A stretch of DNA of 64,000 nt, from positions 62,496,001-62,560,000 of the forward strand of contig OX597817.1 of the NCBI GenBank assembly GCA_951406725.2, read 5' to 3'. Below the pieces are notes generated by a model. It did no database searches and had not been told where the DNA came from. It worked only from the letters and a program-made list of their open reading frames with translations. The position numbers and the translations under genes were made by a program. Shown in pieces: positions 18,613 to 56,625 of the stretch (positions are counted from its first letter, which is position 1; each line of letters opens with the position of its first letter). Source of the stretch: Octopus vulgaris (taxonomy: Eukaryota).

Positions 18613-18690
18613 AAACATATGATGCTATGATTTATATCGTATATTATATGTGTGTATATGTACATATGTTTATGCATATATATATATGTA

Positions 18691-18729
<39 letters not shown>

Positions 18730-18732
18730 TTA

Positions 18733-18861
18733 TTTATTTTATAGAAGGAGCTTCTACAGGACTAGAACTGTTTTATTCAAAAGAAATCATCAGGAAGCTT
18801 CCTGATGATTTGTTTTGAATGAAACAGTTCTAGTCTGTAAATTTCCTTCTATAAAATAAAT
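18733..18861. ncRNA. Head-to-head palindrome of two type I hammerhead ribozyme folds
   Basis: Minus 18799-18749: AGCUUC-CUGAUGA-uUUC UUUU GAAu-AAAA-CAG(loop)CUG-UA-GAAGCU; plus 18796-18839: same fold with GAAA intact but the 3' strand of stem I decayed. Confidence 0.7.
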
Positions 18862-19008
18862 TAATTTACTCTGCTATGTATTGAGTACCTTATTTACTGT
18901 GGTTAACCCCAACTCAACCCGGGACCTACATATATATATATATATATATACAAAATATGGGGATTTAGTTCACAAGTGATCTAAACGATTGGGTACGCAA
19001 GGTAACTG

Positions 19009-19548
<540 letters not shown>

Positions 19549-23404: not shown

Positions 23405-23449
<45 letters not shown>

Positions 23450-23451
<2 letters not shown>

Positions 23452-23620
23452 CACAGGAGTGGCTGTGTGGTAAGTAGCTTGCTTACCAACCACATGGTTC
23501 CGGGTTCAGTCCCACTGCGTGGCATCTTGGGCGATTGTCTTCTGCTATAGCCCCGGGCCGACCGATGCCTTGTGAGTGGATTTGGTAGATGGAAACTGAA
23601 AGAAGCCTGTCGTATATATG

Positions 23621-23659
<39 letters not shown>

Positions 23660-23860
23660 TTGTGTTCTGTGTTTGTCCCCCTGGCATTGCTTGACAACCG
23701 ATACTGGTGTGTTTACGTCCCCGTTACTTAGCGGTTCGGCAAAAGAGACCGATAGAATAAGTACTGGGCTTACAAAGAATAAGTCCCGGGGTCGATTTGC
23801 TCGACTAAAGGCGGTGCTCCAGCATGGCTGCAGTCAAATGACTGAAACAAGTAAAAGAGT
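23450..23860 (+). mobile_element. SINE family 1, near full length
   Basis: A-box-like tggctgtgtggt, B-box-like gggttcagtcc, internal microsatellite, tail ggcggtgctccagcatggctgcagtcaaatgactgaaacaagtaaaag; inverted partial copy follows at 23880-24022. Confidence 0.92.
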
Positions 23861-24899
23861 ATATATACACGTATATATATACGACGAGCTTCTTTCAGTT
23901 TCCGTCTACGAAATCCACTCACGTTCAGCCCGAGGCTGTAGTAGAAGACACTTGCCCGAGAATCCACGCAGTGGGCCTGAACCCAGAAACATGTGGTTTG
24001 GAAGCAAGCTTGTTACCACACCACACATATTGTCATACATAACTATATGAAACATCTTGATGATTTTGATATTCCACGAACATAGAAACAGGTCATCATT
24101 CGTTAAAATTAACCAAGATTATTTCCACTTTTGTTAGTTACCTGCTACAATTTCTAATAATATTTCATCAAAACGATGATTTTCTGACACATTTCTACTC
24201 AATTTGCTGAGCATATTCAAAACATGCTTTAACTATGAAGATAATACGACTTGAAGGTCAGTATCCCATAGTCTATTCAAACTGATGGCATTGTGATTCT
24301 AAAATACAGGTCTTTTTTTACTAAGTATCATTATTGGAGTTGTTTTTTCTGTGCTATCCAAACAGATATCTGTTGCCAGTATACACTGGTACTTATGTTT
24401 GTAGCACTTGTCTATATATAGATGGGAAGATATTTAACTGGCACTGCAGAAATGGGGCCACTTGAAACGGAACATATGTATTCTGTAAATATTAATATTA
24501 AAAGAGCAAGTGTGAAGGAAACAAACCTAGTTATAATCCATCACTGATATCTCACAGACCAAATAATGTCGGAAAATATCATTTATCCGTGAGCATGAGG
24601 AGACGAATAAGTGAAGATACTTGTTTATTAATAAGTTAGATTTCGAAAACTATACTTACAGTATATTTGAAAAATATAGATGACTGTCTTTGCACTAGGG
24701 ACCAAAAAGTAAACAGTGAATATATTTGCCAACCATTTGATGACTCATATCAATATGACTGAAATCGAGAAGTCGTTGCTTTTGCTGTTTAATGTAATCC
24801 CAGTACTGATCGTGTAGACAAATGATATAAGTTTATCTCCACTTCTTCTCATGTATATCTCTAGTAAGTATATTGATCTGTTTACTATATACTCTATCT

Positions 24900-37694: not shown

Positions 37695-37855
37695 GGCGCA
37701 GGAGTAGCTTGCTTACCAGCCACATGGTTCTGGGTTCAGTCCTACTGCGTGACATCTTGGGCAAGTATCTTCTACTATAGCCTCGGGTCGACCAAAGCCT
37801 TGTGAGTGGATTTGGTAGACGAAAACTGAAAGAAATCTGTCGTATATATGTGTAG

Positions 37856-37895
<40 letters not shown>

Positions 37896-38110
37896 TTGTG
37901 TGTCTGTGTCCCCCCCTCCAACATCACTTGACAACCGATGCTGGTGTGTTTATGTCCCCGTAACTTAGCGGTTCGGCAAAAGAGACCGATAGAATAAGTA
38001 CTGGGCTTACAAAGAATATGTCCTGGGGGCGATTTAGTCGACTAAAGGCAGTGCTCCAGCATGGCCGCAGTCAAATGACTGAAACAAGTAAAAGAGTAAA
38101 AAGAGTAAAG
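37695..38110 (+). mobile_element. SINE family 1, near full length
   Basis: High similarity to 23450-23860. Confidence 0.92.
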
Positions 38111-49887: not shown

Positions 49888-50120
49888 ACTCTTACTCTTT
49901 ACTCTTTTCCTTGTTTCAGTCACTTGACTGCGGCCGGGCTGAAGCACCGCCTTTAGTTGAGCAAATCGACTTCAGGACTTATTGGTTGTAAGCCAAGTAC
50001 TTATTCTATCGGTCTCTTTTGCCGCACCGCTATGTTACGGGGACACAAACACACCACCACCGGTTGTCAAGCGATGTTGAGGGACAAACACAGACACACA
50101 AACACACACACACACACACA

Positions 50121-50213
<93 letters not shown>

Positions 50214-50365
50214 TACGGGCTTCTTTCAGTTTCCGTCTACCAAATCCACTCACAAGAGTTTGGCCGGCCCGGAGCTATAGTAGATGACACTTGCCCTAGG
50301 TGCCACGCAGTGAGACTGAACCCGGAACCATGTGGTTGGTAAGCAAGCTACTTAACACACAGCCA
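49888..50365 (-). mobile_element. SINE family 1 copy
   Basis: Reverse-complement match to consensus with an expanded internal microsatellite. Confidence 0.9.
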
Positions 50366-55861: not shown

Positions 55862-55941
<80 letters not shown>

Positions 55942-56625
55942 GAATGGCTCCTTTCAGTTTCCGTCTACCAAATCCACTTACAAGGCCTTGGTGGAGACGA
56001 AGCTATAGTAAAATACTCTAGCTCATGGTGCCACGCAATGGGACTGAACTCGGAACCATGTGGTTCAGAAGCAAGCCTCCTACCACACAGCTACGTCTGC
56101 ACCTACTAAAAAAAATATAGAAAAGACATGGGAGAAGTGATCTCGGAGAACATCCATCCCTGATTAGAGAAATTTCCATCTTTGTTATACAAATGTGAAA
56201 AAAAATATTTTCCGCATCTAAAATGTTGTACAATTGATGTTTGGAGAAAAACCGTTGTGAAATAATCTCGAAACGAGTAGTGCAGCAGGAATTCTAGTTT
56301 GTAGCAAATATTCCTATTTGAGTAAGGCGGTGAGCAAATAGTCTTATTTGAATTAAGACGGCGAGCTAGCAGAATCGTCAGCACACAAAAATGCTTTGAA
56401 ACCAATCTTTTAGATTCACATTAGGTTTCAAGCTGACAGAATTGTTACCTTGCCAGGCAAATTGCTTTGCAGGCTTTTCGTCCGTCTTAGCGTTCTGAGT
56501 TCAAATTCTGCCAAAGTCGATTTTGCTTTTCATGCTTCCGGGGCCGATAAAATAAGTACCAGGTAAACACTGGGTCAATCCCATCCCCAGAAATTGCTGG
56601 CCTTGTACCAAAATTTGAAATTATT
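55578..56625. mobile_element. SINE cluster: family 2 (+) 55578-55780, family 1 (-) 55812-56103, family 2 (+) about 56357-56625
   Basis: Consensus matches. Confidence 0.8.

Follow-up and report, generated by a model that had tools for sequence, protein, structure and literature searches.

The inverted hammerhead arms that are scattered through the Octopus vulgaris genome appear to be made when both ends of a cut (TA)n tract prime reverse transcription of one and the same capped RNA, after which the two cDNAs join head to head at the RNA 5' end, a reading to which we assign a probability of about 0.68 from comparison of genomic copies. In the proposed mechanism, a TATA box in the terminal repeat of a Penelope-like element (PLE) would start Pol II transcription at the A of AGCTTCC, and the hammerhead would begin at +1. 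The element endonuclease would cut (TA)n; one DNA end would then prime at a distal ATAT site and give rise to an arm with a tail, and the other would prime 68 nt nearer, at an A/T-rich site, and give rise to a tail-less arm. Both cDNAs would extend to the cap, often with a C added opposite it, and their 3' ends would anneal by short microhomology, with AGCT yielding a perfect centre. The RNA that is copied would mostly be uncut by its ribozyme. The sequence in the window (the whole 64,000-nt stretch of DNA that was analysed) is a promoterless, mutated insertion of such a terminal repeat, and is likely inert because the TATA box is absent and both of its ribozymes are damaged.

The window insertion and its hammerheads

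As the preliminary description had held, the palindrome in the window is real and each strand encodes a type I hammerhead that reads outward from the centre. Over about 73-75 nt the arms can be aligned with few differences; they overlap at AGCT (18796-18799) within the junction palindrome, the axis of which falls between 18797 and 18798. A 202-nt stretch of the plus strand folds into a single long hairpin (-85.6 kcal/mol, z -13.5) that none of 200 shuffled sequences equalled in stability, and the hammerhead core motif has 2 matches in the 64-kb window against 0.09 expected. The palindrome was first placed at 18733..18861; it does lie there, but it makes up the left portion of a larger unit, an insertion of ~200 bp in (TA)n at about 18732-18929 that includes a 68-nt tail (Table 1). 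Likewise, the centre is self-complementary as described, but the native 5' strand of stem I is AGCTTC, and the leading GGA belongs to the mirrored arm only. Sister copies have one arm that ends at the A/T-rich site, another that continues through the 68-nt tail to GGGACCTAC, and (TA)n on both sides. The window arm could be aligned to the parent repeats over 135 nt. The genome that contains the window is 2.8 Gb in size and rich in microsatellites.

Table 1. Features of the insertion, in positions of the window.
Feature	Position	Strand	Basis or remark
(TA)n target, left side, few (AAAT) units at the joint	18686..18731	.	sequence
Inverted tail-less arm, from AGCT start to A/T-rich proximal end	18732..18799	-	sequence; sister-arm ends
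Type I hammerhead, minus arm; G12A at 18774; predicted cut 18755/18754	18749..18799	-	sequence
Junction palindrome GGAAGCTTCC	18793..18802	.	sequence; A18796 is the putative transcription start of the parent repeat
Type I hammerhead, plus arm; CTGATGA 18802-18808, GAAA 18821-18824, GTA 18837-18839	18796..18846	+	sequence
A/T-rich proximal end site, stop point of tail-less arms	18847..18861	+	sister copies
68-nt one-sided tail, ending in GGGACCTAC	18862..18929	+	sister copies; in the parent it leads to ATAT and then the ORF
(TA)n target, right side	18930..18951	.	sequence

Each arm carries its own lesion, as had been noted, and both lesions are visible in the sequence. The minus arm has G12A with stems that are otherwise intact, and its hammerhead is one that we take to be likely inactive from established hammerhead chemistry. 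The plus arm retains an intact core, but the 3' strand of stem I is altered at 18840-18846, helix II carries a C>G change and one nucleotide is missing at loop III; with its stem I 3' strand decayed, this hammerhead is likely inactive as well. That the family form is a complete hammerhead with a GUA site was borne out by intact sister copies, which have both the complete core and the site. An intact natural copy folds with a helix I of 6 bp (counted from the first A), a helix II of 3 bp plus a U·U and a helix III of 4 bp. The minimum free energy folds of intact family copies keep helices I-III, with the CUGANGA, GAAA and UH core elements present, and neither window arm qualifies by this standard. 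Across 130 arms, variants above 15% occur only at N7, loop II, loop III and one site past stem I, a distribution that fits selection for the hammerhead fold in the source copies, with the variant counts at positions 209-234 biased by the search pattern. Positions 10.1 and 11.1 are U·U in every arm that spans both sites, and the usual purine-pyrimidine pair, which is not universal among hammerheads, is absent. An Rfam scan returned no hammerhead family at E<=5 and only miRNA-type hairpin matches under the gathering scores; the putative hammerhead assignment draws on motif, fold and family variation.

Small deletions recur beside the predicted cut site (window 18834-18846). Reference G233 is lost in 7 of 130 arms and G236 in 14 of 129, mostly in the tail-less arm, with examples in L106, L112, L115, L122, L135 and other loci. 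Within the same sample, such deletions occur in 11 of 94 arms of short palindromes, plus L129 and L171 (palindromes that the script mis-sorted), versus 0 of 36 other distant or solo arms. They could reflect slips of the reverse transcriptase at a nicked or folded ribozyme, repair of the hairpin or assembly error. Elsewhere in the window, a second imperfect hairpin of ~180 nt lies 420 bp to the right, at 19282-19463, and has only low-scoring matches to miRNA models, while a dispersed repeat family with members 79-88% alike is present in both orientations (23434-23861, 37703-38103, 49895-50365 and 55904-56119).

The parent element and its relatives

The parent of the repeat is a unit of ~5.2 kb in which two terminal repeats flank, in direct orientation, a single ORF with a reverse transcriptase and a GIY-YIG endonuclease. 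At three loci (L226, L228 and L236) the ORF is joined to the terminal repeat through a microsatellite-rich 3' region. A search with the 5' part of the ORF gave 132 candidates, 40 of which were scored, and the repeat and tail directly abut the ORF in 16 of 20 fetched stretches (18 distinct loci). Tandems of 5.2 kb were found at two loci, and in one copy, L286, the 722-codon frame is intact and contains YRDDG and YIG motifs. The long copies have an upstream TATA-bearing region followed by ~2.5 kb of microsatellite-rich sequence. They were first read as uninverted, a reading that was rejected when 20 of them were followed over 10 kb, as 13 have at their far end a hammerhead arm in inverted orientation (without a tail in 12 and with a tail in L229). 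The microsatellite-rich 3' region also collects nested insertions (L223, L095, L236 and L097), among them another PLE, a palindromic element of 700 bp and LINE-like fragments of reverse transcriptase. Among the youngest copies with an ORF (L271-L284, 99-100% identical), many share a ~506-codon frame that closes before the endonuclease domain, and their movement may have been assisted in trans. Each of the two end sites is followed, after a few bases, by a small hairpin (L286:3655-3775), with raw fold energies of -3.7 and -4.8 kcal/mol. No splice joint was seen in contigs from sequencing runs, which are of uncertain type and from which transcript starts are unreadable.

The parent is an EN+ PLE, likely of the Hydra clade, with the clade assigned by motif and not by tree. 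It has one ORF with a PLE-type reverse transcriptase and a GIY-YIG endonuclease, and the anatomy of EN+ PLEs, namely pseudo-LTRs from partial tandems, inverted 5' copies and a one-sided tail. Atlas look-alikes of the parent protein (0.96-0.99) carry HTH_animal (31-99% of members), GIY-YIG and RVT_1 domains; a Pfam scan of three fragments of the L226 ORF did not find the reverse transcriptase or GIY-YIG families. The accessible text of PMC8557442 gives the features of the Hydra clade as a DKT motif in place of DKG, a CxCX5C linker, CxxC and CxH flanking the conserved E and N residues, absence of CCHH, an RWK motif and (TA)n insertion. Read by eye, the L286 protein has DKT (in LDKTKN), the linker (CNCPDKTTC) and the arrangement CDLC...E...N...CMH, which corresponds to CxxC and CxH around E and N, and it lacks CCHH. 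At what appears to be the N-terminal place of RWK it has RWR, a conservative change. Insertion into (TA)n and a hammerhead in the repeat were both found.

Set against the same partial text (PMC8557442), the octopus family resembles Hydra-clade PLEs in its single ORF with a C-terminal GIY-YIG domain and its (TA)n target, and it resembles many of the listed Hydra ribozymes in having a T after the CTGANGA box, a T before GAA and U·U at 10.1/11.1. It appears to be distinct from the listed Hydra-1_Obim: the hammerheads differ, and that entry has no pLTR listed, whereas the octopus family has repeats, tandems and thousands of short copies (PMC8557442, as far as accessible). Hydra elements are generally <3 kb and the octopus unit is ~5.2 kb because of its microsatellite-rich 3' region, a difference in length that we treat as non-defining. 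As in the EN+ PLEs covered in the accessible parts of PMC3846280 and PMC8557442, a head-to-head inverted 5' copy overlaps the direct repeat, the tail is one-sided and a TATA sequence lies in the repeat; the octopus tail is 68 nt long, unlike the tails of 30-40 nt in those elements. A type I hammerhead in a terminal repeat and many solo motifs are shared with PLE hammerheads and animal non-LTR retrozymes (PMC4209133; bioRxiv 10.64898/2026.07.22.740005; both in their accessible portions). These two sources, within the same portions, describe a minimal core with G10.1-C11.1, in contrast to the full 4-bp helix III, 8-nt loop and U·U of the octopus hammerhead, and they describe the non-LTR retrozymes as non-coding tandem arrays, whereas the octopus family has a coding parent. 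They also note nearby hammerhead pairs on opposite strands in Schistosoma.

Other PLE families occur in the same genome (L213, L217, L219 and L206-L211). One of them has a hammerhead in which the base of helix II is likewise U·U; another, a young family with a 781-aa product, has, by eye, a U3-A8-type motif in its repeat. The 781-aa GIY-YIG family and other PLEs recovered in a PF01541 search were rejected as the parent, as only 1 of 45 loci (L202) matched the repeat and did so as an insertion.

Position of the inversion and the putative RNA start

The inversion point is a hotspot that varies among copies. Exact matching across the genome gave 6,237 core arms and 4,824 tail motifs. Perfect centres numbered 354, counted for the CTGATGA variant only, and asymmetric centres with a linked tail numbered 252; 15 palindromes have their centre at the second AGCT, which lies in the 3' strand of stem I just past the cut site. 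Backward-read controls for these counts gave 0, except for one place for the second-AGCT palindromes. A junction sample was drawn from core-arm and tail matches on chromosome C1, 0-33 Mb, with six core-match sites omitted; it comprises 74 tail rows, in which the plus-strand match of L099 is a false fuzzy match and two loci are doubled as local duplicates. An inverted arm is adjacent in 50 of the 74. Whether the inversion is fixed at AAGCTT had been posed as a check; it is not, as just 7 of the 50 sampled inverted copies have that perfect centre. Other copies with a variable or missing inversion, together with a consensus lacking the core, had been named in advance as evidence against the original account; the inversion is indeed variable or absent in other copies, but the core is intact. 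The 5' end of the tail arm falls within reference positions 185-197 in 39 of the 50 inverted copies and that of the other arm in 41, and inverted arms end at position 255 in 30 copies and within 253-263 in 49. Arm lengths range from ~40 nt to >3 kb. A dinucleotide repeat follows 127 tails (3 rows were set apart). One locus, L017 (G000:C15:71995645-71998775), has two palindromic copies tail to tail across (TA)146 with mirrored flanks, a layout that suggests a larger secondary inversion or an assembly artefact.

In LINEs, an extra G at full-length 5' ends is a copied cap. We infer that the hotspot is the 5' start of a capped RNA, and that A18796 corresponds to the transcription start of the parent repeat, because the site lies 30 nt below TATAAA (counted from the start of that motif to AGCTTCC, whose A is reference position 188) and because uninverted starts carry an extra G, seen in 50 of 81. 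Counts by eye of the base that separates (TA)n from AGCTTCC gave G in 42 of 58 copies of one set (C in 10, A in 5 and T in 1) and in 8 of 23 of a second (T in 11, C in 3 and A in 1). G makes up 8.6% and 4.7% of the background in those contexts (p 3e-32 and 6e-6), and the excess persists when bases that continue the repeat are dropped (p 1e-10 and 1e-3). Among the 81 uninverted junction bases, 13 are C and 16 continue the repeat. In the parent, the base before AGCTTCC is T, A or C, and the ORF-bearing copy L285 starts with G+AGCTTCC. Of the 16 copies that abut the ORF, one begins at the predicted +1, another 13 nt upstream and the others further upstream, which suggests that other RNAs or template jumps also contribute.

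How the inverted arms may form

The arms of individual copies differ at 39 of 2818 sites (1.4%), versus 4.7% for shuffled pairs (lowest shuffle 3.8%), and thus either come from one source or were homogenised later; conversion between arms could be responsible for the latter. The description had raised snap-back at the self-complementary stem I. With the same parent, a tail-primed cDNA would fold back at AGCT and copy itself, and the accessible part of PMC3846280 similarly interprets PLE palindromes as self-priming on an antisense template and calls for tests. AGCT is self-complementary and does shape the commonest joint, the perfect centre is common (354 exact matches), the arms of a copy have subfamily variants in common and the asymmetric joint can be drawn as a small hairpin. 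Yet snap-back predicts a single joint orientation, and the first 100 of the 252 asymmetric joints, read by eye, divide 50:48 by orientation to the tail with 2 others (p 0.92 for 1:1). Nor can it yield a tail-less arm that is longer than the tail arm, as is the case for 11 of the 50 adjacent arms (the tail arm is longer in 21 and the two are equal in 18), the tail-less arm being much longer in L092, L099 and L137. The second AGCT is rarely used (15 palindromes versus 354 at the first, in one subfamily variant), and an antisense template leaves the extra G at the TATA-defined site unexplained. The balanced joints and the freedom of either arm to be the longer favour two cDNAs over one-strand snap-back, which we regard as unlikely, and the octopus junction counts favour a capped sense template copied twice over the antisense self-priming of PMC3846280 (seen in part). 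Microhomology of 1 nt could also produce an asymmetric joint, with no cap base involved, and the 50:48 division could reflect flipping of the centre or the trimming of a two-tailed intermediate on one side or the other; two-tailed loci exist, one among the asymmetric-joint matches in addition to L229.

The orientation and arm-length data fit equally well with a dimeric enzyme that makes two cDNAs from two separate RNAs of one source locus. A dimer is predicted for the anole protein (accessible sections of PMC11167929), and recurrent sites differ between the arms in a few copies (L046 and L114, for example). Several subfamilies coexist, though, and arms of mixed subfamily are rare, and tail/no-tail pairs outnumber tail/tail pairs, leaving this variant improbable. 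Selection for a bidirectional ribozyme cassette, or for a small-RNA hairpin that serves the host, has in its favour that a hammerhead is encoded on both strands and that a read-through RNA would fold as a long hairpin. The description had rightly expected that hairpin to compete with the ribozyme, and at -85.6 against about -8 kcal/mol it outweighs the ribozyme fold. Its suggestion of a unit designed to be bidirectional did not hold, as centres vary, arms run from ~40 nt to >3 kb and the parent repeats are direct around the ORF; in the window, moreover, both ribozymes are damaged and the promoter is absent, and we consider a selected cassette very improbable. Still less credible is a non-autonomous retrozyme or MITE-like DNA element, even though the unit is short and non-coding, with a type I hammerhead and inverted arms. 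A SINE/retrozyme reading was dropped on finding that the repeat is the end of a coding RT/GIY-YIG element, and no short head-to-tail arrays were present among the loci examined. Against a MITE are the one-sided tail, the asymmetric ends and the variable centre, without matched terminal inverted repeats or a fixed internal structure.

Extension of both strands has an in vitro precedent. In the accessible parts of PMC11167929, the anole Poseidon protein cuts and extends both strands in vitro from two start sites that bound the tail, and unprocessed RNA is its main substrate. The octopus family resembles Poseidon of Anolis carolinensis in having two end sites that bound the tail and A/T-rich targets, and the uncut template that we propose agrees with the in vitro result (PMC11167929, in part). 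None of the 74 tail rows ends in the cleavage zone (229-240), which suggests that cut RNA is seldom the template, and the 15 palindromes centred just past the cut also support uncut templates. Poseidon belongs to another clade, and its ORF begins inside the hammerhead, whereas the octopus ORF lies downstream of the tail; no difference in start sites was seen between its strands, which alone would not explain the dominance of tail/no-tail pairs (PMC11167929, accessible parts). Neither 5' joints nor a cap base is discussed in those parts.

Inverted copies that bear a tail on one side, insertion into (TA)n and a hammerhead in the repeat are already known for PLEs, at least in the sources to the extent accessible. 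For the interpretation of the inversion point in terms of a cap and double copying, no paper was found in a search that had subscription papers, Repbase and bioRxiv supplements outside its scope. The origin of the PLE inverted repeat and one-sided tail is called open in the available parts of PMC8557442 and PMC3846280, and the junction counts of the octopus family separate the candidate mechanisms. Although the window copy is ordinary debris, the family supplies thousands of dated junctions and an intact, recently active ORF, and its insertions seed many perfect DNA hairpins across the genome. That the inserted RNA is rarely cut bears on the role of PLE hammerheads. We tentatively suggest, at somewhat less than even odds, that PLE enzymes copy one capped RNA twice, from both ends of the break and through the cap nucleotide, and that the inverted repeat with its one-sided tail would be the direct footprint of this process; the hammerhead at +1 may then act as a self-decapping switch, cleaving off a capped leader of 45 nt and withdrawing cut RNAs from the transposition pool.
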